A program made the position numbers and the translations under genes. Shown in pieces: positions 2,873 through 18,208 of a stretch of DNA of 64,000 nt. The DNA lies in the IMG/VR virus record IMGVR_UViG_3300020200_003236, positions 1 to 64,000 of that record; one strand, given 5' to 3'. How positions within the stretch are numbered: the first letter of the stretch is position 1; every line of letters begins with the position of its first letter. The notes under the pieces are model-generated. The model did not search any database and had not been told where the DNA came from. It saw only the letters and a list, made by a program, of their open reading frames with translations. This stretch comes from a virus (taxonomy: Duplodnaviria; Caudoviricetes).

Positions 2873-3197
2873 CACAAATGAATCCAAAGAATATCTGGTC
2901 AACGCTATAAAGAATTTACCAAACGATTTCGCCCTAAGTGACGTGCGATTTCACCTTAAAACCGCTTTGAGCAAACTTGAATCGGTGGAAGCCAAACGTG
3001 CCAATCGAGAAGCACAACAAACAACCGGCAATAATTGGGTCATGGTCAATAACGAATTGATGCATCCAGAGATTGCCAAGAAAGTAATTTCTCAATTGGA
3101 TGCCATGATAGGTGCCGAAAAGTTGCGACTCGAAGAATACCGAAAAAAGAAAGAACCTAAAGATGGAGACGAAGATATTCAGGCACTTTTTGGTTGA
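2859..3197 (+). CDS. Hypothetical helical protein
   Basis: 112-aa ORF overlapping its neighbours in an operon-like arrangement. Confidence 0.7.
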   Translation: MMKNNTNESKEYLVNAIKNLPNDFALSDVRFHLKTALSKLESVEAKRANREAQQTTGNNWVMVNNELMHPEIAKKVISQLDAMIGAEKLRLEEYRKKKEPKDGDEDIQALFG

Positions 3198-3729
3198 AAG
3201 CGGCAAAATAAAGAGAGATTATTCTTCTGTCCAACTTAATGTGCCAGATAGACTTGCTGATGAAATTATTTCTTGGGGATATGACAACATACCTGAGAAA
3301 TATGTGTTTTCTAATCCAGACAGGCCGTCGTTCGGTCGTGAAGACAACATTCACATAACCGTACTTTACGGGATTTTAGACAGATATAAAACAATTGTTG
3401 TTGATTTGTTGAAAAATATCAAACCATTCACAGTGCGGCTTGGCAAAATGTCTTTATTTTCTAACGACGTATTTGATGTTTTGAAAATAGATGTTGATAG
3501 TCCCGATCTACATTACATCAATTCCATCTTAACTAAGAACTTAGATGTTGTCCAGACATACCCAAAATATATCCCGCATGTGACAATAGCCTATTTAAAC
3601 AAAAACAAAGGCGGAACATACAAAGGGCTTGAAGAATTTAATGGTGAAAAATTCCAAATAAATAACCTGATATTCTCTTCTAAAGATGGCACGAAACACG
3701 AAATTAAATTAGGAGCAAGCAATGCGTAA
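3163..3729 (+). CDS. 2H phosphoesterase (2'-5' RNA ligase / Acb1-T4 57B-like)
   Basis: Two HxT motifs (HITVLYG, PHVTIAY) about 85 aa apart; likely start is ATG 3163 (METKIFRHFLVES) rather than 3112. Confidence 0.8.
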   Translation: METKIFRHFLVESGKIKRDYSSVQLNVPDRLADEIISWGYDNIPEKYVFSNPDRPSFGREDNIHITVLYGILDRYKTIVVDLLKNIKPFTVRLGKMSLFSNDVFDVLKIDVDSPDLHYINSILTKNLDVVQTYPKYIPHVTIAYLNKNKGGTYKGLEEFNGEKFQINNLIFSSKDGTKHEIKLGASNA

Positions 3730-4666: not shown

Positions 4667-4760
4667 GGGATGGAACCTATATAGTTTATATCAAAAGATT
4701 GGACCATGAAAATATATTTTGACTAATTGTAAGAGTTAACATGGGATGGAACCTATATAG
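4644..4760 (+). repeat. Tandem duplication (76-bp period) with a perfect 41-bp core
   Basis: TGACTAATTGTAAGAGTTAACATGGGATGGAACCTATATAG at 4644-4684 and 4720-4760; flanks also partly similar. Confidence 0.9.
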
Positions 4761-5691
4761 ATTATATATTAAAGGAGTGGTCGTGAAAAGATTTCTACCA
4801 GCCCTGTCCTTAATTCTATGTCTGGGTTTTTTGGGAGTTCAAGATAAATCTCCAGACCGCCTATCGCCGCCAATCGAGCGTATTCACTCATTCGATAATA
4901 TGCCTCTTGTTAAGGGAAGCCGGACTTTACACAAGTCAAGCGAACCTCCTATTGAACAAAGAGGAGAGGCTTATAGAAAGTGGCTGTCGTCCTCTGTCAA
5001 GATTTCAGTATCTAACGCTTCAGGCTCAGGCACAATCGTTTATTACAACTCTTCCTCTAACACAGCATATGTAGCAACTTGCGGCCATTTATGGGATGAA
5101 GGAATAATGTCGGCTGAAGAAGGCAAGCTTCGTAATTTAACTTGTAAGATTGTCATATGGTATCAAAACGAGAAAAAACTCAAATCTACCAAGGTTTATA
5201 ACGCCAAAGTAATCTTTTACAGCAATGTTAGTGGTGCCGACTCAGCTTTAGTCACATTCCAGCCTGATTGGGTTCCAACTTATTTTCCAATTGCCCCTAA
5301 AAACTACAAATATAAAAACGGCCAACGTGTACACTCTTGCGGTTGTGACGGCGGAAGAGAAGTGGCTCATTATGATGTTGAAATCATTGGTATCCAAAAT
5401 AACGATTTAATTACCTTCAGAAACAGCCCTCGTCCGGGTCGTTCTGGCGGCGGTTTAATGGACGATCAATATTACATCGCCACATGCTGGGGCACTGAAA
5501 GTTATAGCGGCACCGGCAAAGGATATTTTACGCCTTTAAGTGCTATTCACAGAGTATTCTCGAAAAACGGCTACAATTTTTTGCTGAATATTCCTCCGGG
5601 TGGTTCCGCCGCTAGAGAATTGCCTATTGTTGACCGTAATGGCTCTCAAGGCACTTACTCAGAGGAATATATTCTTTTACCCGGTCGTTAA
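4741..5691 (+). CDS. Trypsin-like serine protease with signal/anchor peptide
   Basis: Catalytic triad motifs ATCGH, DSA, GRSGGGL; hydrophobic N-terminus KRFLPALSLILCLGFLGV; true start probably a GTG after the AAAGGAG SD (about 4777-4783). Confidence 0.85.
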   Translation: MGWNLYRLYIKGVVVKRFLPALSLILCLGFLGVQDKSPDRLSPPIERIHSFDNMPLVKGSRTLHKSSEPPIEQRGEAYRKWLSSSVKISVSNASGSGTIVYYNSSSNTAYVATCGHLWDEGIMSAEEGKLRNLTCKIVIWYQNEKKLKSTKVYNAKVIFYSNVSGADSALVTFQPDWVPTYFPIAPKNYKYKNGQRVHSCGCDGGREVAHYDVEIIGIQNNDLITFRNSPRPGRSGGGLMDDQYYIATCWGTESYSGTGKGYFTPLSAIHRVFSKNGYNFLLNIPPGGSAARELPIVDRNGSQGTYSEEYILLPGR

Positions 5692-5702
5692 ACAATGATC
5701 GA

Positions 5703-6464
5703 TCATGTCAATGAATAAAAAGGACAAATTTTTCGCCATTCGCATTTTCTACATTGATCCCCCACTCTGCCGTGGGCCTCATCTGGATGCATGTCCTTTA
5801 TTGTTTTATACGAGCCAACTAGTTCTTGTTCCGCTGTTTCTAAAGACTCTTCCGTAAACTTCGTGGGCACAAGTTCTGGTCCCTCGACATAATATAAAGC
5901 CGCCCGTATATACTCGGCCTTCACGTTGAATAATTTTTGTAAAACTCTAGCATAAGATCGCAATTGCAAATCTTTTCGGATCGTGTTAGAGTTCTTGCGG
6001 AAAAATCCTTTCTTTGTGGTTTTATAATCCAGAATGAAATATTTTCCGTTCCGAATAATTAGTCGGTCGATCACGCCTTTTACGAGACAGTTATTCGGCG
6101 GGTCGAAATCGTGAACGAATTCGTATTCCAATTCGCCATCGTAACCAATACGGTCACTTAACGCCTTGATATTTTTCAAGTGCTGGGGGAATTTGTTTTT
6201 GTAGGCATCGGGCAGTGGTGACGAGGGCTTGTTGAATTCCAGCAGAATCTTCCCGCCCAAAACATCGTTGGCAATCAGAGCAATATCTTTTTTGCCTTGT
6301 TCCTTGACATAATATTCTGCGACTTTGTGGACTATTTTTCCATAAATGAGGTAGTCCGGGGTAGGTTCAAATGTTACAATCTTCTGATGGTATTTGTAAT
6401 TGTATTTCGCAGGGCACTCGTCAAAAGTTTGCTTTCTTGAAACTGAAATGTGTTCTATATTCAT
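5703..6464 (-). CDS. PD-(D/E)XK nuclease, RecB/Cas4-like
   Basis: GVIDRL and ILDYKT nuclease motifs, QLRSY, N-terminal CP and C-terminal CRKCEWRKIC Fe-S-type Cys cluster. Confidence 0.88.
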   Translation of the reverse strand: MNIEHISVSRKQTFDECPAKYNYKYHQKIVTFEPTPDYLIYGKIVHKVAEYYVKEQGKKDIALIANDVLGGKILLEFNKPSSPLPDAYKNKFPQHLKNIKALSDRIGYDGELEYEFVHDFDPPNNCLVKGVIDRLIIRNGKYFILDYKTTKKGFFRKNSNTIRKDLQLRSYARVLQKLFNVKAEYIRAALYYVEGPELVPTKFTEESLETAEQELVGSYKTIKDMHPDEAHGRVGDQCRKCEWRKICPFYSLT

Positions 6465-6505
6465 GATTTCCTCCGGTTCATTTATTCTAAGGTAAATAAG
6501 TCGTC

Positions 6506-7543
6506 ATGGCAATCAATTTTGAAAGATTCAAAGAATGGGCTGAGCGGAAATTTGGCGAGGTTGTCGTCAAAAATAAAGAAATCCGTATCAACTCTGTTTT
6601 TGAACCTGATGACGATAATTTTCACCTTTGGTGTTCTCCGTCTGGCGGCAAAAAGAAAAGAAAACTCGGTGTATTCCATTGTTTTAAGACCGACAAAAAA
6701 GGCAGTTTGGTCAGACTCGTCCAACTTGTAGAAAAGTGCGACCGAGATACAGCTTTATCTATTCTGACCGGCCAAAGTACCATCTCGGACCTCGAACGCC
6801 GACTCGAAGAATATTTTGCTGAACAGGACGGAATAAAAGCGGAACCACCAAAACCCGACCTGCAATTGCCAAGTGGTAGTTTACTTATATCCAACTTGCC
6901 ACTCAATAACTGGTGGAGAAAAAAAGCGGAAGAATATTTGCAGGGACGGCACATCCCCATCGACGGATATTACGTTTGCACGGAAGCTCCGTACAAAGCC
7001 AGAATAATTATCCCTTACTACGATCAAACTGGAAAATTGATTTATTGGAATGGGCGACACATCAGCGATAAGGCCAAACTGCGTTATTTGGGTCCACCCA
7101 AAGAAGTTGGTGTGGGCAAAGAAGATGTAATTTACATGGCTGGCCCGTGGCCACCAGAAGATTTCTACCTATATCTATGCGAAGGCGAATTTAACGCCAA
7201 AAGCCTTTTCTTATCTGAATTAAACGCAGCGGCGTGTGGCGGGAAAAACATAGGTGAAAAACAAGTTACTATATTATCTAGGTACAAGATTGTCTTGTGC
7301 TTAGACCGTGATAAGGCCGGTAAAAGTGGCACAAAGAGAATGACAGAAATTTATAATTCTTTATCTCTCAAAATAGCTACTGGTACCAATTTACTTTATG
7401 TGCGACCCGCCAACGGGTTCAAGGATTGGAACGAAATGTTCGTTTCTCTCGGCCCCGCAGTTCTGCACAGTTATGTTTTGCGGTCGCAAAAACCAATTAC
7501 CCATAATTCCCCGTATGGAACGGGAGCGGATATTTTCTTATGA
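6506..7543 (+). CDS. DNA primase (DnaG/TOPRIM type)
   Basis: N-terminal Zn-finger-like region (FHCFKTDKKG), IIIPYYD/WNGR, TOPRIM motifs LCEGEFNA and CLDRDKAG. Confidence 0.85.
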   Translation: MAINFERFKEWAERKFGEVVVKNKEIRINSVFEPDDDNFHLWCSPSGGKKKRKLGVFHCFKTDKKGSLVRLVQLVEKCDRDTALSILTGQSTISDLERRLEEYFAEQDGIKAEPPKPDLQLPSGSLLISNLPLNNWWRKKAEEYLQGRHIPIDGYYVCTEAPYKARIIIPYYDQTGKLIYWNGRHISDKAKLRYLGPPKEVGVGKEDVIYMAGPWPPEDFYLYLCEGEFNAKSLFLSELNAAACGGKNIGEKQVTILSRYKIVLCLDRDKAGKSGTKRMTEIYNSLSLKIATGTNLLYVRPANGFKDWNEMFVSLGPAVLHSYVLRSQKPITHNSPYGTGADIFL

Positions 7544-7911
7544 AACTCACTACGATTAAGAAGTTGCAAGACAGGTTTGTTGGCAAGGTCTGCACAATAC
7601 TTACTTCTCCAATTCCCAAACAAAACTTTTCCGACACGCAGTTCTCGGATTTTTTTACCTGCGTTATTGACTCTCTCGATGAAGATGGGATTTTTGCAAC
7701 TCACCCAACAACCGGGTGTAAAAACTTTTATAACCTGACCAATGTATTGGGCATTGTTGAAGAGCAAGTCTTCTATGAAGATAACCCAGAACACGCAGCA
7801 ATAATTGCCAAGGTTCGTGATCTTCCAAAAACACCTAAGCCGAACCCCAATGATTTTGCAAATATTGATTTGATGGCAAAACTAGCCCAAAAGCAGGATA
7901 GTTCCAATTAG
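7540..7911 (+). CDS. Hypothetical protein
   Basis: 123-aa ORF coupled to the primase (ATGA overlap). Confidence 0.7.
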   Translation: MKLTTIKKLQDRFVGKVCTILTSPIPKQNFSDTQFSDFFTCVIDSLDEDGIFATHPTTGCKNFYNLTNVLGIVEEQVFYEDNPEHAAIIAKVRDLPKTPKPNPNDFANIDLMAKLAQKQDSSN

Positions 7912-7970
7912 GGGATAAGAAATTTATCCTATTTGGTGGTATTGAATTTCTTTTTATCACTATATTAAAA

Positions 7971-8027
7971 TGTTGTGGGTGCAGACTCTGGATGCACCAC
8001 TTATACTCTGTAGTTCTGCGACAAGGA
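7971..8027 (+). promoter_or_regulatory. Possible structured 5' leader abutting the SD of the ExbB-like gene
   Basis: GGTGCA(gactctgga)TGCACC hairpin; TGTTGTGG (7971-7978) can pair with CTGCGACA (8016-8023) using G-U pairs, directly before the AAGGA SD. Confidence 0.3.
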
Positions 8028-8034
8028 ATCAAAA

Positions 8035-8712
8035 ATGAAATATGTCCCTTTTCTTAAATGGTGGCTTTTTTTTACGGTGATATGTGTCGCCGCAATATTT
8101 GTTCAATACGCTGGCTTTTATGCCGTACTTTGGAAAAAGGACAGTAGTTATTTAAGCTGGGCAATTCTTGGCATTTTTGTTTTTTTCTCCCTTCTTTGTG
8201 GGGGTTACATACTTCGTGTGTGTGCGTCACCACCCAAAGATAAAGCATCTTTTGAAGACTATCTGCGTCAGGAAGAAGTGGGCTGGTTCTTTAGTGAATT
8301 CTGTTTGACTCTAGGCATGATTGGAACGATTGTCGGATTCATATTCATGCTTTCAGGGTTTGAAGGCATTGATATGAACAAGCCGCAAACCGTTCAATCA
8401 CTATTGTCTGATCTTGGCAAGAGCATGTCTACGGCCCTGTACACCACTTTGGTAGGTCTTGTCTGCGGTGTTTTGCTGAAAATACAATACTTCATTTTGA
8501 GTTTGGAGCTTCAAAGAATTGGTAAACCAAAGAAGAATACTTTGGTTTCTTCTCCATCCCTCATTTCGGAAAATCCGCAAAAAACAGAGGCTGAGATTTT
8601 CAAGGGAACTCTTTTGAGCGAAGAAAAAGAATTGGCGATCCTTGCAGAAGAAGTGGCCCTGAAAGCATTATATTCGGAATCCGAAAATTCACAGGTGAAA
8701 AATGAGAACTAG
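8035..8712 (+). CDS. MotA/TolQ/ExbB proton-channel family protein
   Basis: Four hydrophobic segments; family motifs LGMIGTIVG and MSTALYTTLVGL. Confidence 0.9.
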   Translation: MKYVPFLKWWLFFTVICVAAIFVQYAGFYAVLWKKDSSYLSWAILGIFVFFSLLCGGYILRVCASPPKDKASFEDYLRQEEVGWFFSEFCLTLGMIGTIVGFIFMLSGFEGIDMNKPQTVQSLLSDLGKSMSTALYTTLVGLVCGVLLKIQYFILSLELQRIGKPKKNTLVSSPSLISENPQKTEAEIFKGTLLSEEKELAILAEEVALKALYSESENSQVKNEN

Positions 8713-9391
8713 GAGTTATAGCTGTAATACGTCTTTCTTGGACTTGCTTTTTAATACGTTAATTGCTTTTACCGCTCTCTTCGTTTTGGCTTTCGCCCTG
8801 ATGAACCAAAACAAGAAAACGCCGGACGTAAAAGGTGCGTATATCATCACCGTCACTTGGGGTGAAGAATTTGACGATGATGTTGACACATACGTTTTGG
8901 CCCCCGATAACAAATTGGTGTTTTTCCAAAGACGTGAAGACGGCCTAATGCACCTAGACCGAGACGATCTTGGTAAAAGAAATGACATAGTGAATACTCA
9001 ATTCGGAAGAATTGAATACAAAGAAAATCGAGAAATAGTTACTTTGAGAGGCACATCACGGGGAGAATACGTCGTTAACGTCCATCTGTATAGAAGGAAT
9101 GACCCGGCAAACTTAAAGCCTATCGAAGTCACAATTCAACTCGACAAAATATCTCCTGCCTATACCCCTATTGTTCAAAATAAAGTAATCCTTGTGAATA
9201 ACGGGGAAGAAAAGACGGGATTCAGATTTGTGGTTAATGACAAAGGCGAAGTCACATCGACTTCCTTCTATTATAAGCCTTTGGCTAATGCCGCTCAGGG
9301 GCAAAACCTCCCTGTCGATCCCGATTTGGGGAACGGTAATCCCGAAAATCCCATAAATTTCGATCCAAATATTCCACCAGAGGATGAGTAA
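8702..9391 (+). CDS. ExbD/TolR/MotB-like partner: single TM with conserved Asp, fused to a YfaP/DUF2135-like domain
   Basis: N-terminal TM SFLDLLFNTLIAF; DVDTYVLAPD..LDRDDLG..EIVT..GEYVVNVHLY pattern; overlaps the ExbB-like gene. Confidence 0.7.
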   Translation: MRTRSYSCNTSFLDLLFNTLIAFTALFVLAFALMNQNKKTPDVKGAYIITVTWGEEFDDDVDTYVLAPDNKLVFFQRREDGLMHLDRDDLGKRNDIVNTQFGRIEYKENREIVTLRGTSRGEYVVNVHLYRRNDPANLKPIEVTIQLDKISPAYTPIVQNKVILVNNGEEKTGFRFVVNDKGEVTSTSFYYKPLANAAQGQNLPVDPDLGNGNPENPINFDPNIPPEDE

Positions 9392-9393
9392 CA

Positions 9394-10032
9394 ATGGACT
9401 TTAATGCTATCGGTATTCCTATTGCCTTCATTTTGCTCGCAGCAATTGGCTTGTGGCTACTAATCTTTGCAAAAGGTTGGTGGGTTCTTAAAATTATCTT
9501 CACGAGCCTTTGTATTTACTTTAGTCTTGCGGTATGGTTGTCGCTTAGTCAACTTAGCGGCTGGCCCAGCAATTCCGAGATGCCTGAAATATTTTTAATC
9601 AATGGGATCGCTGTTCAAGAACCCTCGTTGACTGACTCAAGAGACAAAGGAAATATTTACATTTGGACTACAGAGTTGGACAATGATTTCAGGGCCAAGA
9701 AAACAGAAGTTTCTTCTTGGTTATCGCCTTTTGTTTCCAAGAAGCGTCCCTCAGAACCCAGAGCTTATCGTTTGCCTTACTCAGAGAAAATGAAAGAACA
9801 ATTGGCTCAGGTTTCAAAAATGATGAAAGCTGGAAAGCCCGTTGTTGGCCAACGCAATAATTTAAGTGGCGAAGGCGATGGTGAGGATAACGGCAAAGGC
9901 AAAGGCAAAGGCAAAGGCAAAGGCAAAGGCAAAGGCAAAGGCAAAGAAGGCAACAGCAATGGCGGCTCAATGAGTCAGGAACAAGATTTTATGTTCTATG
10001 AGTTGCCCCCTCCAAAGTTCCCAGACAAATAA
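9394..10032 (+). CDS. Membrane protein with a (GK)9 linker, third gene of the motor-like operon
   Basis: Two N-terminal TM segments, soluble domain, Gly/Lys repeat, Pro-rich end; 2-bp gap from the previous gene. Confidence 0.75.
   Translation: MDFNAIGIPIAFILLAAIGLWLLIFAKGWWVLKIIFTSLCIYFSLAVWLSLSQLSGWPSNSEMPEIFLINGIAVQEPSLTDSRDKGNIYIWTTELDNDFRAKKTEVSSWLSPFVSKKRPSEPRAYRLPYSEKMKEQLAQVSKMMKAGKPVVGQRNNLSGEGDGEDNGKGKGKGKGKGKGKGKGKEGNSNGGSMSQEQDFMFYELPPPKFPDK
9892..9945 (+). repeat. Perfect hexanucleotide microsatellite (GGCAAA)x9 encoding (GK)9
   Basis: Read directly from the sequence. Confidence 0.95.
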
Positions 10033-10041
10033 GGAAGCAAT

Positions 10042-10977
10042 ATGAAGCATATTGGTTTAGATTTGGTTCGTGTCACAGAAGGTGCTGCTATTGCCGCTTC
10101 TGCTTGGGTAGGAAGCGGCAATAAGCTCTTAGCCGATAGAGATGCCACTGATTCTATGCGAAGACGCCTAAACAACATGGATTTCAAAGGTGTAATCCGT
10201 ATTGGCGAAGGCAAAAAGGACCAAAGTTATGGTCTTTTTAAAGGCGAAGAAGTGGGGAATCTTCCTGCCGAATATTTTCACCATCTATCTTCCCCGCCCA
10301 AAATTTACGATATTGGTGTTGATCCTATTGACGGCACAACTCCCACGGTAACTTCTGGCCCGGAAGCCACAAGCGTAATTGCTATTTCTGAAAAGGACTC
10401 AATGTTTGATACGGAAGAGCATTATATGCTCAAGTTGGCTGTTGGCCCCATTATTCCACCGTGGAAAGCCCGACAATTGAACTTTTCTATGCCTCTTCCA
10501 GACATTTGTAATTTTGTAGCAGATGCTCTTAATAAGCCTGTTGACAAATTGATGGTTTGTATTCTCAATCGTTCACGTCACGAATTGTGGATTAAACAAA
10601 TGCGTGACTTGGGTGTGCGAATGAAATTGATTCAAGACTGTGATATAAGTGGAGCTATTGCGACCTGTCTACCAGATGGCGGCATTGATATGCAATTTGG
10701 CGTAGGTGGTGCCCCCGAAGCGGCAATAACAGCAGCAGCCATGAAATGTCTTGGCGGTTTCTTCCTTGCACAACTTTGGAATCAGAATCTATTTGGCCCA
10801 GAAATGAATCAGGATCAACTTGTTCAAGGCCCATGTGCTTTTGCAGCAACCGGGATTACAGACGGAAGTTTATTGAAGGGCGTGCGTTGGACTACACGGG
10901 GGCCAGTAACAAATAGTGTGTTTATGCGTTCTGAAAGCAGAACTGTTCGATGGCTCACAACGAATCATGGCAACTGA
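10042..10977 (+). CDS. glpX: Class II fructose-1,6-bisphosphatase
   Basis: LVRVTEGAA, IGEG, VDPIDGTT, RSRH, GGAPE, ATGITDGSLLKGV. Confidence 0.93.
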   Translation: MKHIGLDLVRVTEGAAIAASAWVGSGNKLLADRDATDSMRRRLNNMDFKGVIRIGEGKKDQSYGLFKGEEVGNLPAEYFHHLSSPPKIYDIGVDPIDGTTPTVTSGPEATSVIAISEKDSMFDTEEHYMLKLAVGPIIPPWKARQLNFSMPLPDICNFVADALNKPVDKLMVCILNRSRHELWIKQMRDLGVRMKLIQDCDISGAIATCLPDGGIDMQFGVGGAPEAAITAAAMKCLGGFFLAQLWNQNLFGPEMNQDQLVQGPCAFAATGITDGSLLKGVRWTTRGPVTNSVFMRSESRTVRWLTTNHGN

Positions 10978-12735
10978 TTATTTGGTTGTGACCGACTTGG
11001 CAAGATTTCTGGGATAATCTGGATCATAATTCTTTGCCAAAGCAATGTAGTAAGCCAAGAGTTGTATTGGAATAATTTCTGATACAATTCTTTCTATTTC
11101 TGTGCTGCCTGCTGGCACTTCTATCCAATGATCGTACAAATAATTGTACTTCTCGGCAATTCCGATGATTTTGGCTCCCCGACTTTTGACTTGCCTCCCA
11201 CTGATTTCCATGTCTGAATAAGTTTCATCACTTGGATGTAGCAGAATCACATAGGAACTTTCGTCAATGAGAGCTAGTGGGCCATGCTTTAATTCGCCGC
11301 CCGCCAAACCTTCTGCATGGATATAAGCAAGTTCTTTTATTTTCAAAGAAGCCTCGGACGCAATTGGGTGGTGTATTCCTCGACCCAGAATGTAAATGTC
11401 GCTTACATCTTTGATTTCGTAGGCAATTGCCTTAACCTTGTTTTCTTGCCTGAGAGATTGTTTGACTAAATTTGATATAGCCCCAAAATTTATGTCGCTA
11501 AACTGAATGTGGGAAGCAATTCCTGCCAATAAGAGAATTTGTGATGTAAAACTTTTGGTTGCAGCAACGCCAATCTCAGGACCACAATTGATTGGTAACA
11601 CCAAGTCCGAAATGCCTGCCAAAGTTGAAGCTGTTTTGTTGACAACGGCGATGATTTTGGCCCCGTTATGTTTTGCCATCAAAACCGTTTCTAATACATC
11701 GGCACTTTCACCACTTTGCGATATTGCCAATAACACAGACTTTTCATCGAAGTCGTGATTCAAAAATGGGCATTCACTTGAAATGATAGGCTCTACTTTT
11801 ATCTTATGTTTATTCAGAAGATATTTGCCTATCAAACAAGCATTATAGCTTGTACCACTGCCCGTGAAATATATGTTTTTGGCTGCACAAAGCATTCTGG
11901 CAGCATCGAAGGTGTTGCATTCCGGCGTATTGCATTGAATCTTTTTGACCGTATGAATTTGCTCGTGAATTTCTTTGATGGTAAAGTGGGCGTAGTCTTC
12001 TTTGTAAGCATCGGCCACTTCCCTTGAGAGTTCTACCGTCTTGTGTTTTACTTCTTTGCCTTCAAAGTTGTAAATTGTCATTCCTCGAACTTTGGGCGGT
12101 TCTATTACGGCAAACTCTTTGTTTTCAAGGTAAATGGCTTGATTTGTGTTTTCAATGAATCCCAATACATCACTTGCTACGATGTATCCTAGTGGAGCTA
12201 GACCCACAATAATTGGTTCATGGTTTCTTACTGCCACCAGCGTTTCGTCGTCAAATATGGCCAAAAAAGCATAATGTCCCTTTAAGTGCTTTACGACTTC
12301 AAGGACTGCTTTCTTTGGGTCTTGTCTTTTGACATATAAATGTGCCAAAAGATTGGCAATTATTTCACTGTCGGTATCGCTATTGTGGGCAAACCCAAAT
12401 TCAGATTTTAATTCTTCGTGATTTTCTATAATCCCGTTGTGAACGATAGCAATCTTGCCAAGCAAAGTGTCAACATGAGGATGAGCATTGCTTTCACTTA
12501 TTTCCCCATGAGTTGCCCAGCGAGTATGGCCAATTCCCACATTACCGGGCAGTTTATCAAGATTTTGTTTCCGATTAACATCTTGCACTTTACCCACGCC
12601 TCGTGCAAGATTCAGTTGTTTATCAAATGTACAAGCTCCAACACTATCGTAACCACGGTACTCCATTTTTTGAAGTCCACGCACGATAGTAGGAGCTACA
12701 TCGCTCTGAAAAGAGCAACCAATTATCGAACACAT
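10978..12735 (-). CDS. glmS: Glutamine--fructose-6-phosphate aminotransferase
   Basis: N-terminal nucleophile MCSIIG, GHTRWATHG, HNGIIEN, ISQSGESAD, EIGVAATKSFT, GELKHGP, PRNLAKSVT. Confidence 0.97.
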   Translation of the reverse strand: MCSIIGCSFQSDVAPTIVRGLQKMEYRGYDSVGACTFDKQLNLARGVGKVQDVNRKQNLDKLPGNVGIGHTRWATHGEISESNAHPHVDTLLGKIAIVHNGIIENHEELKSEFGFAHNSDTDSEIIANLLAHLYVKRQDPKKAVLEVVKHLKGHYAFLAIFDDETLVAVRNHEPIIVGLAPLGYIVASDVLGFIENTNQAIYLENKEFAVIEPPKVRGMTIYNFEGKEVKHKTVELSREVADAYKEDYAHFTIKEIHEQIHTVKKIQCNTPECNTFDAARMLCAAKNIYFTGSGTSYNACLIGKYLLNKHKIKVEPIISSECPFLNHDFDEKSVLLAISQSGESADVLETVLMAKHNGAKIIAVVNKTASTLAGISDLVLPINCGPEIGVAATKSFTSQILLLAGIASHIQFSDINFGAISNLVKQSLRQENKVKAIAYEIKDVSDIYILGRGIHHPIASEASLKIKELAYIHAEGLAGGELKHGPLALIDESSYVILLHPSDETYSDMEISGRQVKSRGAKIIGIAEKYNYLYDHWIEVPAGSTEIERIVSEIIPIQLLAYYIALAKNYDPDYPRNLAKSVTTK

Positions 12736-14816
12736 TTACTGCCTTCTCTAAGGAGTTTCTTATAGTATTCTACCTTTTCACGGAGAACATTGCGAGGGGC
12801 AACCCAATCGAGCATCTTCGCCCAAGTTTCTATTTCGTCGTCATCTTCTATTCCGTGTCTATATCGCAATCGTGTAAGGTCTGTAATGGCATCTTTGATT
12901 TTGTCGTTCATTACCATATCTGTCAGTTTTTCCATTGTTTCATCGTCAATAATTCCTTCTTCTCTTGCTTTGCCAATTTGCTCTAAGGCGTCATGTGGGC
13001 TAACATCATTGGCGTCATGTGGGCTAACATCATTGGCGTCATGTGGGCTAACATCATTGGCGTCATGTGGGCTAACATCATTGGCGTCATGTGGGCTAAC
13101 TTTATCATCGTCTAACATGCTTGTACGATATGGTCCGCCAGGTCTTTTGCCGATGCTTCCCTTGTCGCCATCTTGATCTTTTGGTGTATTTGGCGGCATA
13201 GAATCGTCTGGAATTTCTGTTGTCCTACTTGGAGTCACGGGTTCTGTACGAGTCTCGCCCGCATCGTCTGCCACGGGTTCTGTACGAGTCTCGCCCGCAC
13301 CGTCTGCCAGCTTATCTCTTTCTATTTCTACTCTAGATTTGCGGCTACGGGACAATTTTGTAACATATTCTTGTCGTAATTTTTTAGCTCTTTCGATTCT
13401 TTGTTCAAAATCTTGACGGTCTTTTATTGGATCACTATCAAGTTCGATTCTTTCTTCCCGTCTAAGTTCATTCCAAACATGGTGACGATCCCTATTGTAA
13501 AGAAGTTTAGTACGAGGATCACCAAGCCTCAATATCCACGGGAGGAATAAGCCTTTAAGTCCTTTTTTGGCAATTCTTCTTTCGTGCCCACCACCGTAGT
13601 TATTCCAAGCCGCTTTTTCACTTGGGCTTAAATTATCCCATGCACGATCACCAGTATTAGGTTTTTTATCCCAATATGATGAATAACTTGGTCCTGCTTC
13701 GCCATCTTCTTCCGGTGGGACTGTGCCGCTTTCTGGGGGCGATTCATCGTCAATTACGGCTGTACGATTCAGGTCACCCACTATACGATCAAGGGTGTCC
13801 GGGTCTGTAGCACTAGTAATGTACTTTTTGTAGGCTTCATATTTGTCGCTTGGCAATCCTCTTTCTTTGGCTTTATCGAGGTCTTCCATTGCTGTCGCAC
13901 GCTTGGCATCTATTCCACCATCTTCGGTGGGTTCTCGCTTCTCAGATTCAAACTTTGCTATCTTGGTTTCTGCTTGTTCCAAATCGTCATTGTCAATTAA
14001 CTCTTTGATTTTGTTGTATTCTTCGTCTTCAATGAAGGGGGCTAAAGCGCCTAATCTGTCTCTTAGTTGTTGTTTAGAATCAGCAACCTCATCTCCTGTG
14101 CTTTTTCTCTTTTGAATTTCTTTAATTCTCTTGAGGGCTAATTCAGGATTGGTTTTTGCAAAACCAAGAATTTGCTGATATTCTTCTTCATCAATAATGC
14201 CACTCACTTTCATTTGCTTGGCCATTTCCTCGGCTCCCTTGCGGGCACCCTCTGGGTCTTTTCCATCCCAAACTGGTTCATCAGCAGGCTTTCGTTTTGG
14301 CTTTGGCGCTGGGGCCGGTGGCGTTGCCGCTGGTGTTGCAGGAGCAGAACCGCCAGCACCATAAATATGATCTTTTACAGTTTTGACGAGCATTGTTTTA
14401 AGTTGCTCGCCCCACTGATTGATGAGCCGAATTATTGCGAGATTTTCGGTGCCCGGAATTGTGTCTTCAAGCAGAGTATCAAGCTGAGTTTCTAGCAGTC
14501 TGCAATGTTCACGAAAAAGACGATATTCCTCTATAGGAATAGTGCGCAGCATGACGTGTTCTGGGTGGACTTGTCCCAGATCGTCACCAAGTTTGTTGTT
14601 CCAGAAATAGGGATTATCTTGATTATACCTTCCCCACCACAAATTGGACATGGTGTTCTTAAATCTGTCCCATAGCCCACGTCTAGCCTGTGGGCGTGTC
14701 ATGGGGTTAATGAGAGAAGATTTCAACTGCCCAATCATCTTATCCACTTCTTGTGGAATTCGGTCCAAAAGGGCTTGAATTTTCTGGTCCAAAGCAGTGT
14801 CTTTAATTATTTGCAT
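12723..14816 (-). CDS. Large acidic, repeat-containing hypothetical protein (possible virion/internal protein)
   Basis: ORF 12723..14843; likely start MQIIKD at 14816 after an AAGGAG SD; helical repeats, DANDVSPH repeats. Confidence 0.8.
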   Translation of the reverse strand: MQIIKDTALDQKIQALLDRIPQEVDKMIGQLKSSLINPMTRPQARRGLWDRFKNTMSNLWWGRYNQDNPYFWNNKLGDDLGQVHPEHVMLRTIPIEEYRLFREHCRLLETQLDTLLEDTIPGTENLAIIRLINQWGEQLKTMLVKTVKDHIYGAGGSAPATPAATPPAPAPKPKRKPADEPVWDGKDPEGARKGAEEMAKQMKVSGIIDEEEYQQILGFAKTNPELALKRIKEIQKRKSTGDEVADSKQQLRDRLGALAPFIEDEEYNKIKELIDNDDLEQAETKIAKFESEKREPTEDGGIDAKRATAMEDLDKAKERGLPSDKYEAYKKYITSATDPDTLDRIVGDLNRTAVIDDESPPESGTVPPEEDGEAGPSYSSYWDKKPNTGDRAWDNLSPSEKAAWNNYGGGHERRIAKKGLKGLFLPWILRLGDPRTKLLYNRDRHHVWNELRREERIELDSDPIKDRQDFEQRIERAKKLRQEYVTKLSRSRKSRVEIERDKLADGAGETRTEPVADDAGETRTEPVTPSRTTEIPDDSMPPNTPKDQDGDKGSIGKRPGGPYRTSMLDDDKVSPHDANDVSPHDANDVSPHDANDVSPHDANDVSPHDALEQIGKAREEGIIDDETMEKLTDMVMNDKIKDAITDLTRLRYRHGIEDDDEIETWAKMLDWVAPRNVLREKVEYYKKLLREGSKCVR
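12987..13100 (-). repeat. 24-bp perfect tandem repeat x4.75 (DANDVSPH)
   Basis: GGCGTCATGTGGGCTAACATCATT repeated on the + strand; a 36-bp doublet (ADxAGETRTEPV) also lies at about 13237-13308. Confidence 0.95.
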
Positions 14817-14850
14817 GGCATTCTCCTTGCCATATATAGTCACGGCAAAA

Positions 14851-15312
14851 TCAATGTTGTTCGCTTATATACTCGCCAATTTTCTTTAGAGACATAAGGC
14901 AGGAGTCAAATCGGTGGAAGTCACTGGAAAGGTATTCCAGAGCCAACTCATCAAAGCGGGCAGAATCATCGCCTTCTACCTCAAAATAGATGGCTTTACC
15001 CTTTTTGCCTAAAACCTTATATTTGTGCATTAAGATAAATGCTGCGGCCCCTAAGTCCGTGACAAATCTATGGGATTTTGAAGCAAATGGGTATTCCCCA
15101 ATCTTCTTTAGGGACATAATACATGCGTCAAAGCGATGGAACTCACTAGACAGATAATCCAAAGTAAGTTGGTCAAACTTCTCGGCTGTTTGTTCATCGG
15201 CTGTAAGCAGAAAGAAGATTTCTTTCCCTTGACGACCAATCACTTTATATTCGTGCATTAAAATATAAGCGGCTGCGCCCAAGTCGCTTACACTCTTCTT
15301 ATTATTTTTCAT
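14851..15312 (-). CDS. Protein of two tandem homologous domains (DUF5659-like)
   Basis: V(S/T)DLGAAAxILMHxYKV...LxYLSSxFHRFDxCxMSLKKIGEY occurs twice. Confidence 0.75.
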   Translation of the reverse strand: MKNNKKSVSDLGAAAYILMHEYKVIGRQGKEIFFLLTADEQTAEKFDQLTLDYLSSEFHRFDACIMSLKKIGEYPFASKSHRFVTDLGAAAFILMHKYKVLGKKGKAIYFEVEGDDSARFDELALEYLSSDFHRFDSCLMSLKKIGEYISEQH

Positions 15313-15394
15313 TTTTGCCTTTCAAATTCATGGGGATATAACAATTGCCATTCCCCGTTCTCGCTTTCATACTGTTATCTTAGTCAATTTAATG

Positions 15395-16399
15395 CTATTT
15401 CGCAGCTTCTGCGGCAATTAAGCAACCACGAGCTACGCTATAAAGTGGATCGTTTGGTTTTACGACTTCTCCCACTTTAATTGATAAGTTTGCTTGCACC
15501 AGTGTATCTTTAAACAATGTTGCAAAACCATAGGGAGAAGATGTTCCTCCCGCTATCACTATGTCAACAGGGGCTTCGGTATGAACAGCTTTGTTCGCAT
15601 CGGCCAAACCCTTCTTGATACCAGCGATAGTATGTTCAATCATTAGTCGATATTGAGTTTGTATTGCACGTTCTACCAAGTTGGTTGGTGGTTTAGATAA
15701 GTCAATCTTAGTTTTTTCTTTGTTGATGAAAGTTGGTGTCTCACCAGTTGCTTTCGCAGCCTGCTTGTCAATCCAGTCGCCGCTATTCACAATGGCGAAG
15801 GTGAATACTGGCGTTCCATACATTGCATAGCAGATGTTTACCATACCGGCACCAAAGCTGATACCAATACCTGTGTATGCCTTTTTGCCTAACTCGGCAT
15901 AAACCAGAGCCAATGCCTCGTTGATTGGATTGGCATTTACTTTAAAGCCCTTGTCGGACTTGTAAGCCTTGAAGATGGCTTCTAACACCTTTTGGTGGTA
16001 GTCGGCATCCGTATCTTCGTTAATGGCATTGGCCGGTATACAGTAATAGAGTGTTTCGTTGTCTTGTTTTACATCATCTAATAGGCTGTGAACCATAATG
16101 CTCAGGATTTGGAAAGCGTCTTTTTCCTTGGGATTAACGCATCCATGAGCCATAGGTCGCTTGAGTTCCAGTTGGCTCATTGTATAAGCCATATTGACAG
16201 CAGCTTCGCCAAGGGCATAAGCGACGTTTTCACGCTCAATAAGCGGAACACCAGCATTTTTCATCATATTAAAAACAAAGCGATTTTCAAGAGGAAGCTC
16301 TAAAAAGGCATTTACTTCTCGCTTGTTCGCAAAATTGCCTTTGTCGTCTCTGCTGCAACAGACAAGGTTATATGTACCTGCGTCAAAACCTAATGCCAT
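15395..16399 (-). CDS. Actin-fold ATPase (MreB/ParM/FtsA superfamily)
   Basis: Phosphate-1 GFDAGTYNL, connect NPINEALA, phosphate-2 ISFGAGMVN, adenosine IAGGTS, C-terminal VARGC. Confidence 0.85.
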   Translation of the reverse strand: MALGFDAGTYNLVCCSRDDKGNFANKREVNAFLELPLENRFVFNMMKNAGVPLIERENVAYALGEAAVNMAYTMSQLELKRPMAHGCVNPKEKDAFQILSIMVHSLLDDVKQDNETLYYCIPANAINEDTDADYHQKVLEAIFKAYKSDKGFKVNANPINEALALVYAELGKKAYTGIGISFGAGMVNICYAMYGTPVFTFAIVNSGDWIDKQAAKATGETPTFINKEKTKIDLSKPPTNLVERAIQTQYRLMIEHTIAGIKKGLADANKAVHTEAPVDIVIAGGTSSPYGFATLFKDTLVQANLSIKVGEVVKPNDPLYSVARGCLIAAEAAK

Positions 16400-16401
16400 A
16401 A

Positions 16402-16737
16402 TTACTCCTTTTTTCCAAATTGAATTTTCGGCGAAGCCTCAAAATCCGGCACTTCCCAATTGAAGCCACTTGATTTGGACTTTTCTTTCTCTTGTTTAAC
16501 TGATTGCGCAGAAACAACCGTACTATCACCGTTCAGGTTGATATTAAGCTCCAATACAATGGAAACTTGGCATTCGCCGTTCTTAGTGATAACCTTTACT
16601 TCGTTAGGTTTTATGAGTTGTGGCAATTTTTTCTCCCAATTCACAATAATGTTGCTGCTACACCTATAGTTATACTCTATAATAGAATTTTGGCTTATTT
16701 TTCCAACGGCCACTTCTTTCCCGCAATCCCAAATCAT
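16402..16737 (-). CDS. Hypothetical protein (true start may be the TTG of LPQLIKP after GGAG)
   Basis: ORF track; internal SD-like GGAG before a TTG. Confidence 0.6.
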   Translation of the reverse strand: MIWDCGKEVAVGKISQNSIIEYNYRCSSNIIVNWEKKLPQLIKPNEVKVITKNGECQVSIVLELNINLNGDSTVVSAQSVKQEKEKSKSSGFNWEVPDFEASPKIQFGKKE

Positions 16738-16898
16738 AGTGTTGAAATTTTCTGAAATCGCACTAAAACCATGCGGTGCATGTATATGTCGCCAAGTCCG
16801 CCATTATCGTGCCAAATCAGGACTCGGTTTCTTTTTGCGTGAAACTCCTTAATGCTCAAAGGTTTCGGTTTATAGACTTTTTTGTTTAAAGAAGGCAT
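16734..16898 (-). pseudogene. 54-aa N-terminal fragment resembling a GT9 (heptosyltransferase-like) glycosyltransferase
   Basis: Hand translation MPSLNKKVYKPKPLSIKEFHAKRNRVLIWHDNGGLGDIYMHRMVLVRFQKISTL*; contains the GT9-type 'vLi....GGLGD' motif. Confidence 0.5.
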
Positions 16899-16905
16899 AC
16901 CCTAT

Positions 16906-16940
16906 AAAAGAAAAGAGCCATCGTATTTCTACGATGGCTC
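16906..16940 (-). terminator. Intrinsic terminator downstream of 16966..17553
   Basis: Perfect 11-bp stem GAGCCATCGTA-tttc-TACGATGGCTC (16915-16940) followed on the minus strand by TTTTCTTTT. Confidence 0.8.
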
Positions 16941-16965
16941 CAGATTATTCACCGTTTAAACTTGC

Positions 16966-17553
16966 TTAGCTGTTGCAAGCACTCTTGACAGAGACAAGAA
17001 CTTGAACAGTTGTTGCTCCATCGGTTTCTTCAAAATTTAACTTTGAAATCAATAGGTCGCCAGAGTTGAATACTTGTGTTTCGCCACTACCAATTGTAAT
17101 TACAGCATCTCCTACGTCATTGATGCGGCAATCAACGTCGTTAGCTCCCTTGTTGGTAATCTGTACGAATGTAGCGTAACCACCATTGTCGCCAAGAATA
17201 TCGGCCTCGTTATTATCAAATTCACTACCTGAAGCTACAACTATGTTATAGACCCGTGGGAAGGTGTTCTCTTCCGACACGTCACTGTAAACCGAACCGT
17301 CGTCGGTTACAACTTCAATGAAGGCTTCGCTGAGTGGAACTTGTGGATAGGCAAAACGCTTCCAGTAGTTGCAATCCGTGAAAGTGTCGCCGTCAAATAA
17401 CTTTCTGTATTTCTTGCCTGGACCAGCTACATAAATTGTACGCTGAATGGATGTTGTGAATTGGCTTCCTTGAGCGCCTTCAACACCTGCGTCAAAACGC
17501 TTGTCAAGCAAGCCTTGGGCTGTGTTGTTTAATTTTACTTTAAATACACTCAT
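16966..17553 (-). CDS. Hypothetical beta-rich protein (possibly structural)
   Basis: ORF 16966..17628; likely start MSVFKV at 17553 with AAAGGA SD and an upstream TATATAAA. Confidence 0.75.
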   Translation of the reverse strand: MSVFKVKLNNTAQGLLDKRFDAGVEGAQGSQFTTSIQRTIYVAGPGKKYRKLFDGDTFTDCNYWKRFAYPQVPLSEAFIEVVTDDGSVYSDVSEENTFPRVYNIVVASGSEFDNNEADILGDNGGYATFVQITNKGANDVDCRINDVGDAVITIGSGETQVFNSGDLLISKLNFEETDGATTVQVLVSVKSACNS

Positions 17554-17611
17554 TGCTATTGTTCCTTTGAATTTATTGACCTTATCTCTGCCTTTATATA
17601 TTGTGTTGCTA

Positions 17612-18208
17612 TTATATTTTGAAAACATCTAGGTTGTAATAAAGGCTTTTGTATAAATTTCCACCAATTCCTTGCGTTGGTGCGAGGGCTGTAAATTCGT
17701 TTTCGACACCAATTACCCATGCTGCGGACTCTAAACCGCCGTTGATTGCTGGTTACATGTTTTTTGAAATAACGTATTTTTCAACCTTTTCTATTTGTTC
17801 TCTACTTAACGATCTGGTGGGTGAGGCACCGAAAGGGTAGATAGAGCAAAGGTTGCCGCCTTTGTTTTGTTTTGTTTTCAAGAGCAATTTTGGGATATGT
17901 GATTCTTTGAGTAATTCTTCGACGGGATGATTTTGCATGTCGCAAAAAAGTTCTCTGGTGTAGCCATATCTTTCTTTGACATATTCATTTGCTTTGAGTG
18001 TTTTCGGTGAGTCTTCGAGTAAATAATAAGCGTCGTCTTTGCAAACTAAATATATTTCTATGCCGGGATAAATTTTCTCAATGCTCGGTCTTATAAGTTT
18101 GAGTTGCACCAAGTATTCATTGCAATTACCGACATACATAATACAGTAGCGATTCTTGACTTTTGCGTAAGCTGTTAAAGGAACACTCATGGAAAATGAT
18201 TCTGACAA
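17612..18208 (-). pseudogene. GT-B/GT9-like gene interrupted by an in-frame TAA at 17753-17755
   Basis: The frame stays open for 46 codons after the stop (PAINGGLESAAWVIGVENEFTALAPTQGIGGNLYKSLYYNLDVFKI*); AAWVIGVEN resembles the GT9 'a..viGvDSG' motif. Confidence 0.5.

Follow-up and report, generated by a model that had tools for sequence, protein, structure and literature searches.

A putative three-protein ion-driven motor of the MotA/ExbB class in a large tailed phage, with chromosomal counterparts beside PQQ dehydrogenase genes

A 64,000-nucleotide stretch of DNA (IMG/VR record IMGVR_UViG_3300020200_003236, positions 1 to 64,000; hereafter the window) from a large tailed phage carries three adjacent genes, g1, g2 and g3, which form a conserved unit and which likely encode a three-protein motor coupled to the proton-motive force (PMF). 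g1 belongs to the MotA/ExbB/TolQ channel family, g2 joins a conserved membrane aspartate to a periplasmic head of DUF2135/TerD-like fold, and g3 is a membrane hairpin with a small periplasmic domain. The same trio is found in the same order on bacterial chromosomes, where it is linked to genes of the pyrroloquinoline quinone (PQQ) system. The fuller reading, in which the trio is such a motor and serves the phage as an additional copy of an envelope machine of the host, is one in which we place about even confidence. The phage origin of the window is apparent from its genes for a T4-type large terminase, a baseplate wedge protein and a primase; the terminase is its first open reading frame (ORF) and has its best match, at 55% identity, in the uncultured 595-kilobase (kb) phage LR756511. 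The three genes are as follows.

8035..8712, plus strand: g1, 225 residues, minimal MotA/ExbB/TolQ-family channel subunit with four transmembrane (TM) segments
8702..9391, plus strand: g2, 229 residues, ExbD/MotB-like 'axle' subunit with one TM segment and a periplasmic beta-sandwich head
9394..10032, plus strand: g3, 212 residues, two-TM hairpin with a small periplasmic alpha/beta domain, a low-complexity stretch and a C-terminal strand motif

Three conserved membrane proteins

The first-pass annotation had described three tightly coupled membrane genes at 8035-10032, and the ORFs lie at exactly these coordinates, with g1 and g2 overlapping by 11 nt, g2 and g3 separated by 2 nt, and g3 followed after 9 nt by glpX. 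The motifs it quoted are likewise all present, namely LGMIGTIVG (g1 residue 93), STALYTTLVG (g1 residue 132), FLDLLF (g2 residue 12) and (GK)9 (g3 residues 167-184), and hydropathy gave four, one and two TM segments for the three products, respectively. Among 90%-identity clusters g2 has 1894 relatives, and an exhaustive profile search counted 2100 among 50%-identity clusters; the trio therefore does not consist of chance ORFs.

The assignment of g1 as an ExbB/TolQ/MotA homologue was borne out by its score against PF01618 MotA_ExbB (32.7 bits, above the curated cut-off of 22.9), and its homologues from a Rhizobium phage and from Thiothrix scored 23.0 and 30.9 bits, respectively, against the same family. 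The ZorA, MotP and PomA models of NCBIfam and PADLOC returned weak rows only. Among 23 aligned phage and bacterial relatives (A4), G94, G97, T98, G101, T138, G141, L142 and Q151 are invariant, and these residues make up the two channel helices with their motifs LGxxGTxxGF and ALxTTxxGL. When counted over 147 distinct relatives, the channel threonine T138 is present in 147/147 and T98 in 128/147. The loop between TM2 and TM3 is only ~28 residues long, and g1 thus lacks a cytoplasmic domain of either the MotA or the ExbB type; its C-terminal tail (about residues 160-225) is variable. A replacement of T98 by lysine (LGLLGKVIGF), with the second threonine retained, was observed in 16 genome loci, mostly from Burkholderiales.

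T98-to-Lys loci: L045, L046, L052, L054-L056, L058, L065, L067, L069, L075-L077, L081, L082, L084

The g2 product has the topology of ExbD, TolR and MotB, with a basic N-terminus and a single TM segment (residues 15-33 by hydropathy) with Asp14, and the ExbD/MotB-type membrane aspartate that had been claimed for it is present in 151/152 distinct relatives. The AlphaFold2 (AF2) model (predicted local distance difference test score, 75) consists of a long helix at 7-36 followed by strands that form a beta-sandwich, with the head comprising about residues 44-200. Within the head, W53, D60, D62, D88, D89 and E111 were found in 152/152 relatives, and H84, D86 and N109 are near-invariant; the set D60, D62, D86, D88, D89, N109 and E111 is common to phage and bacterial copies, and such a pattern would fit a metal site of the TerD kind, probably for Ca2+ or another metal. 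A fold search returned TerD structures as the best solved matches, 2qz7 with Z 8.9 (131 aligned) and 2kxt with Z 8.7 (138 aligned), and the next match had Z 6.2.

That the g2 head is DUF2135/YfaP-like and not of the OmpA type had been proposed from the letters of the sequence, and the profile comparisons agree with this. A profile of 127 g2 relatives matched Escherichia coli YfaP (DUF2135) with an hhalign probability of 90% and an E value of 1.7e-6 over 77 columns, and one built solely from the 27 close relatives reached 28% probability. Weak Pfam matches among the 127 relatives were to DUF2135 (PF09906; 7 relatives, best E 6e-4), PPC (11), ExbD (PF02472; 5, best E 0.001) and MotB_plug (PF13677; 2), and a structural neighbour in the ESM Atlas (TM-score 0.72) is auto-named YfaP/DUF2135. 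At the level of profiles, the DUF2135 assignment of the first-pass annotation thus finds support. No Pfam match of the window g2 to the OmpA-like domain (PF00691) was found and none to ExbD/TolR (PF02472) at E <= 1; TerD (PF02342) was not among the 25 families most matched by the 127 relatives, and ten longer g2 relatives yielded no additional Pfam domain. A wall anchor of the MotB type is not supported for g2, there being no OmpA hit and a weak MotB_plug match in 2/127 relatives only.

The third gene indeed encodes a membrane protein with a (GK)9 run, as first described, with two TM segments and the run at residues 167-184. Searches of Pfam, NCBIfam, PADLOC and PHROGs assigned it to no family at E <= 0.001, and 71 relatives were found. 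BLASTP detected no match between g3 and the third gene of the Rhizobium phage, but a profile from relatives connects them (E 6e-20). In the AF2 model, helices at 4-25 and 30-53 are followed by strands at 66-75, 87-95 and 123-128, a helix at 131-145 and a strand at 150-154, and then by a disordered part (157-196) and a strand at 199-203. Because positive charges occur only in the turn between the two helices, both termini should be periplasmic by the positive-inside rule. G56 is kept in 146/147 relatives, R123 in 145/147, P205 in 118/147 and K212 in 125/147, and the C-terminal strand carries a conserved motif, ELPxPxxPxK, which in the window reads FYELPPPKFPDK.

The GK run falls in the disordered part of the model, between the fourth strand and the C-terminal strand, and, judging from this order of secondary-structure elements, the G/K-rich stretch would be inserted into a small domain and would not serve as a rod across the periplasm. 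Relatives of g3 carry G/K/E/D-rich runs that differ in length and composition, and in bacteria the GWP, EPRxY-LPY and C-terminal ELPxPxLPEK motifs are retained, with a short unrelated linker in place of the GK run. At the DNA level the run is a perfect repeat, a microsatellite that could vary in length by slippage.

9892..9945, plus strand: (GGCAAA)9 hexanucleotide repeat, perfect, encoding (GK)9 within the disordered stretch of g3

No g3 fusion forms were found among longer proteins, which is weak evidence since low-complexity words crowd the candidate list. The proposal that g3 is a TonB/TolA-like transducer is not supported by these comparisons, as no TonB or TolA family match, no conserved TM histidine and no Pro-rich spacer were detected. 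Nor is TonB or TolA identity borne out, given two TM segments instead of one, the lack of an invariant or near-invariant histidine in the g3 alignment (A2), the absence of a TonB or TolA Pfam hit, and a spacer that is G/K-rich and whose GK run does not occur in bacterial copies.

Gene order and distribution in phages and bacteria

The co-occurrence of the three genes across phage and bacterial genomes, which had been put forward as a check, was assayed in viral contigs and in species-representative genomes. The genome scan yielded at least 550 loci, and the best 80 of these, evaluated with per-gene profiles, provide the bacterial counts given here; the viral counts derive from the best 80 of 125 IMG/VR contigs that encode a g2 relative. 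All three genes were present in the order g1-g2-g3 in 78/80 bacterial loci, the two exceptions being cut contig ends or two loci of metagenome-assembled genomes (MAGs), and the trio was complete in 76/80 viral loci, 73 of which are collinear. In the first survey, which includes these same bacterial loci at 78/80, the trio was complete in 83/87 sequences, with five phage loci and the window all positive. The identity of the viral relatives spans 90% to ~40% with unchanged gene order, and the flanks of the IMG/VR loci contain terminase, head protease, HNH and sigma-factor genes. These results demonstrated that the three genes form a unit. Two outcomes that the first-pass annotation had named as refuting its reading, a TM aspartate not kept in homologues and genes that do not occur together, were thus not obtained.

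A blastn search with all three genes in 50,697 phage records gave no match, and tblastn of g2 against the phage collection identified 27 Rhizobium and Sinorhizobium phage records. In two isolated phages, RHph_N34 (EVC06_145-147) and 16-3 (p038, p040 and p042), the g2 homologue has a small MotA_ExbB protein on one side and a two-TM protein on the other. The close metagenomic relatives of the window retain the terminase, the trypsin-like peptidase, a PD-(D/E)XK nuclease, the primase and the trio, and the commonest downstream neighbour of the trio in viral loci is a nucleotide-sugar epimerase.

In the g2 tree, the window falls inside a clade of 65 leaves (support 0.977), all but three of which are viral contigs, and the wider group to which it belongs has as its sister a clade of chromosomal copies from marine Alphaproteobacteria in PQQ context; the Rhizobium phages branch elsewhere. 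Two loci from bacterial genomes, L024 (a Harrisonbacteria MAG) and L009 (a Rokuibacteriota MAG), also lie within the viral clade; their contigs are short and may belong to phages whose DNA was binned with the MAGs. Copies in bacteria are chromosomal and not prophage. With the trio on hundreds of bacterial chromosomes, the machine did not arise as a device of phages alone, and the idea that the phage builds one of its own is to that extent overstated. Phage and chromosomal copies have the same invariant residues in all three proteins.

The chromosomal loci have a recurrent setting. In Thiothrix eikelboomii, genes for a cytochrome c, a MoxJ-like binding protein, a SoxYZ-like protein, a metallo-beta-lactamase and a rhodanese lie 5' of the trio, and a lipoprotein and a TRAP transporter gene lie 3' of it. 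Other chromosomal trios adjoin a PQQ dehydrogenase of the methanol/ethanol family (TIGR03075), a PQQ-associated beta-propeller protein (TIGR03866) and a PQQ-system binding protein of the ATP-binding cassette type (TIGR03863), and ped/lut-type transporter genes are also found among their neighbours. A PQQ-system gene (TIGR03075, TIGR03866, TIGR03863, MoxJ-like or metallo-beta-lactamase) was present within 5 kb of the trio in 42/80 loci, and a PQQ alcohol dehydrogenase was encoded in 5/5 trio genomes tested, in two of them just past the 5-kb flank. Over 151 genomes of Gammaproteobacteria, the class of the Thiothrix genome, the dehydrogenase was found in 13/19 genomes with the trio versus 14/132 others (odds ratio 18, p 1.5e-7); the latter 14 include two unpublished genomes (G044 and G146), and the odds ratio is 21 without both. 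The link between the trio and the PQQ system is strong, not absolute. In 34 bacterial loci a lipoprotein of ~240 residues with a weak DUF3108-like match is encoded directly 3' of g3 (for example at 6079-6789 in L038), and this fourth gene product may be what the machine uses as an outer partner in cells. A published transcriptome (PMC6277846) reported two MotA/TolQ/ExbB genes, MEALZ_3990/3991 of Methylotuvimicrobium alcaliphilum, that are repressed by lanthanum along with the mxa genes of Ca-dependent methanol dehydrogenase and are candidate members of the trio.

A proposed mechanism and its competitors

Ion-driven motors of the 5:2 class power flagella, gliding, Ton uptake, Tol-Pal and Zorya defence. 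We propose that g1, g2 and g3 would form one inner-membrane machine of this MotA/ExbB class, in which g1 would be the ion-conducting ring and the g2 helix would sit inside it, with Asp14 accepting protons opposite the conserved g1 threonines. The passage of ions would rotate g2 against g1, and as g1 is almost without a cytoplasmic domain, the output would have to be periplasmic. It would pass through g3 and through the g2 head, which is acidic, DUF2135/TerD-like and probably binds Ca2+ or another metal; g3 would be anchored by its two-TM hairpin and would present a small periplasmic domain ending in the conserved strand. The sequence data establish that g1 is a homologue, that Asp and Thr are conserved, what class of fold the g2 head has, that the gene order is fixed and that PQQ genes are linked; assembly, stoichiometry, rotation, metal binding, the part played by g3 and the benefit to the phage are deduced from them. 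That the trio is a PMF-coupled three-protein motor seems to us likely. In the phage it would be an auxiliary version of an envelope machine of the host that is kept running or taken over during infection, a proposal made because the bacterial step is genomically tied to periplasmic PQQ dehydrogenases and ped/lut-type transporters; the window trio, for its part, stands directly before glpX and near glmS, both host-type genes. Since the residues invariant in phages are those invariant on chromosomes, the phage copy would most likely carry out the same biochemical step, and that it does the same job as the cellular trio is offered tentatively. More specifically, the trio might represent a class of proton-driven periplasmic machine that has gone unrecognised, with the metal-binding g2 head and g3 energising the supply or maturation of periplasmic quinoprotein dehydrogenases, for example by Ca2+/lanthanide or PQQ handling, a step that a large clade of big phages would then control with a copy of its own, although we regard this specific version as rather unlikely.

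Comparison with the known members of the class brings out both shared features and differences. As in the Ton (ExbB-ExbD-TonB) and Tol-Pal (TolQ-TolR-TolA) systems, three inner-membrane proteins are encoded together and the third is membrane-anchored with a periplasmic part, g1 belongs to the ExbB/TolQ Pfam family with the same channel threonines, g2 shows the ExbD/TolR topology with an aspartate near the cytoplasmic face, and the output would be periplasmic and not cytoplasmic. Unlike those systems, however, g1 has four TM segments without the large helical domain on the cytoplasmic side, the g2 head, a beta-sandwich of DUF2135/TerD type, departs from the ExbD/TolR fold, g3 has two TM segments and is without the conserved TM histidine, the Pro-rich or long helical spacer and the C-terminal domain of TonB/TolA, and the trio is not linked to genes for TonB-dependent receptors, TolB or Pal. 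With MotAB and PomAB it shares the four-TM g1 whose channel is formed by the last two helices, the single-TM g2 with its essential aspartate, and weak NCBIfam MotP and PomA rows for g1, whereas the FliG-binding cytoplasmic loop is cut to ~28 residues, a flagellar context and an OmpA-like peptidoglycan-binding domain are lacking, and a third protein is added. The g2 head has in common with YfaP the pattern W-x6-D-x-D-(V/L)-D...P-x-G and G-x-Y-x-V...Y, and it resembles the Ca2+-binding TerD proteins in fold, but YfaP, from the alpha-2-macroglobulin operon, is secreted, TerD resides in the cytoplasm, a tether to an ion channel is absent from both, and the window g2 falls below every Pfam threshold.

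The literature offers partial parallels. In a 2025 study (PMC12204202, Mol Biol Evol), an aspartate-bearing 'transpore-helix' is predicted within a TolQ-like pentamer and fused to a von Willebrand factor A (vWA) domain; such transducers resemble the trio in combining an Asp helix in a TolQ-like ring with a non-ExbD periplasmic domain, and differ from it in that the g2 head is DUF2135/TerD-like and not vWA and that the trio always has a separate two-TM partner. The term 'DUF' does not occur in the main text of that study. Another paper (PMC12505986) describes 'generic ion transporters' with assorted DUF appendages. A literature search found no paper on this trio or on a phage motor trio and none with the term 'DUF2135', and 'phage-encoded' ExbB/ExbD gave nothing relevant.

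Several observations weigh against the proposed auxiliary machine. None of the four family collections (Pfam, NCBIfam, PADLOC and PHROGs) gave a match to the window g2 at E <= 0.001, its best PHROGs row was marginal (E 0.025), and the weaker rows of g2 and g3 are of low complexity or at chance level. The link of g2 to TerD is one of fold, for which the Z scores can reflect a common beta-sandwich, and the case for metal binding consists of the conserved acidic residues and the likeness to TerD and YfaP. For g3, the fold search produced only helical-hairpin matches to the TM region, and Foldseek weak rows only (E >= 0.14), to toxin B subunits of the OB-fold type. No PQQ alcohol dehydrogenase was found at E <= 1e-100 in 6/19 of the trio genomes. 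The window encodes no homologue of the PQQ-system proteins or of the bacterial fourth gene, the viral loci have neither PQQ genes nor the lipoprotein following g3, and the phage copies group in an old and diverse clade apart, as would equally be expected of a phage-specific use.

The closest competitor builds on these last points and keeps the motor, but assigns it a phage-specific output on the host envelope that is unrelated to PQQ, such as superinfection exclusion, help for exported enzymes in breaching or remodelling the wall, or the timing of lysis. Besides the large and diverse phage clade and the phage loci without the fourth gene and a PQQ neighbour, it draws on the trypsin-like peptidase at 4741-5691, 3.3 kb upstream, which is kept in close relatives and has a counterpart in phage 16-3. 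However, the neighbours of the trio in the window are a primase and glpX and not lysis genes, the commonest downstream neighbour in viral loci is the nucleotide-sugar epimerase, and the identical invariant residues of phage and chromosomal copies argue for one shared activity, so we see in it a minority possibility, if a substantial one. A quite different idea dispenses with rotation: g1 and g2 would be a gated pore through which ions leak, so that the infected cell loses membrane potential and the host is shut off or lysis is timed, with g3 as a regulator. Unplugged MotAB and ExbBD complexes do leak protons, and g1 is almost without a cytoplasmic domain for torque delivery, yet a leak has no need of the large conserved periplasmic head of g2 or of the periplasmic domain of g3, and the chromosomal copies are stable fixtures beside metabolic genes, unlike a depolarising device; we consider this channel reading improbable.

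A defence or counter-defence module of the Zorya kind carried by the phage would account for the best NCBIfam and PADLOC rows of g1, which are ZorA models, and ZorA and g1 do belong to the same MotA/ExbB family, with ZorA subfamilies as the top-scoring named models. The score of g1 is nevertheless 27.6 bits against a cut-off of 500, g1 (225 residues) is without the long ZorA tail, g2 is without the peptidoglycan-binding domain of ZorB, no ZorC/ZorD-type nuclease or helicase family was found among the neighbours scanned (4741-7911 and 10042-17628), and the trio is phage-borne or, in cells, lies in metabolic clusters and not in defence islands. With a primase and glpX as its neighbours, Zorya membership was rejected, and the module reading has very little left in its favour. 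Equally far-fetched is the trio as a functionless passenger, for which the further host-like genes glpX and glmS might be cited, although they lend it no direct support; three intact frames, with their invariant residues kept across the 65-leaf, mostly viral clade and their gene order unchanged from 90% down to ~40% identity, speak against it. Of these readings, the auxiliary host-type machine is the one that we favour, with a phage-specific envelope output as its closest alternative.

Neighbouring features and significance

Two short sequence features precede the trio.

7942..7971, plus strand: sigma-70-like promoter match, TTGAAT-18-TAAAAT, the sole such site in the 123-nt gap 5' of g1 and weak evidence
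8023-8028, upstream of g1: ribosome-binding site AAGGAA

Because promoter-like sites in the region number 9 versus 7.0 +/- 2.9 in shuffles, the first of these is to be read as a consensus match only; the terminator scan was likewise not above shuffles. The glpX gene (class II fructose-1,6-bisphosphatase, 301 bits; window region 10042-12735) starts 9 nt past the end of g3 and probably shares a transcript with the trio, and a GlmS-type amidotransferase gene (GATase and two SIS domains), within the same region, converges on glpX with zero gap. Upstream, a trypsin-like peptidase (PF13365; 4741-5691, plus strand) has an N-terminal hydrophobic segment and is probably exported or membrane-anchored; it is kept ~3-4 kb 5' of the trio in 11 viral loci, and in phage 16-3 a trypsin-like protease, p036, is encoded two genes ahead of the trio.

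Other genes of the window were noted in passing. A Volactin-family actin-fold protein (PF25216, 244 bits) is encoded at 15395-16399 on the minus strand and has homologues at the same relative position in related phage contigs. At 3112-3729 on the plus strand lies a 2H-phosphoesterase of the 2'-5' RNA ligase superfamily (31 bits); its match to Acb1, which is directed against the cyclic-oligonucleotide-based anti-phage signalling system (CBASS), is weaker, at 22 bits, and below the cut-off. An acidic protein of 706 residues (12723-14843, minus strand) contains five tandem 8-residue DANDVSPH units and duplicated ETRTEPV segments and has no above-threshold family, and 42972-54614 on the minus strand is a single ORF of 3880 residues.

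Each new branch of the 5:2 motors has shown a new way to spend membrane energy outside the cytoplasm, and the putative branch described here comprises ~2100 clusters at 50% identity with a fixed three-gene order, a new axle head and a new third subunit, and is not virus-specific. To our knowledge, no energised step has been described beside PQQ (often lanthanide-type) alcohol-dehydrogenase and transporter genes. The bacterial PQQ neighbourhood and the cultured Rhizobium and Sinorhizobium phage carriers provide testable handles for the genetics of both phage and host. For phage biology, the trio would exemplify a virus that carries a complete membrane energy converter.

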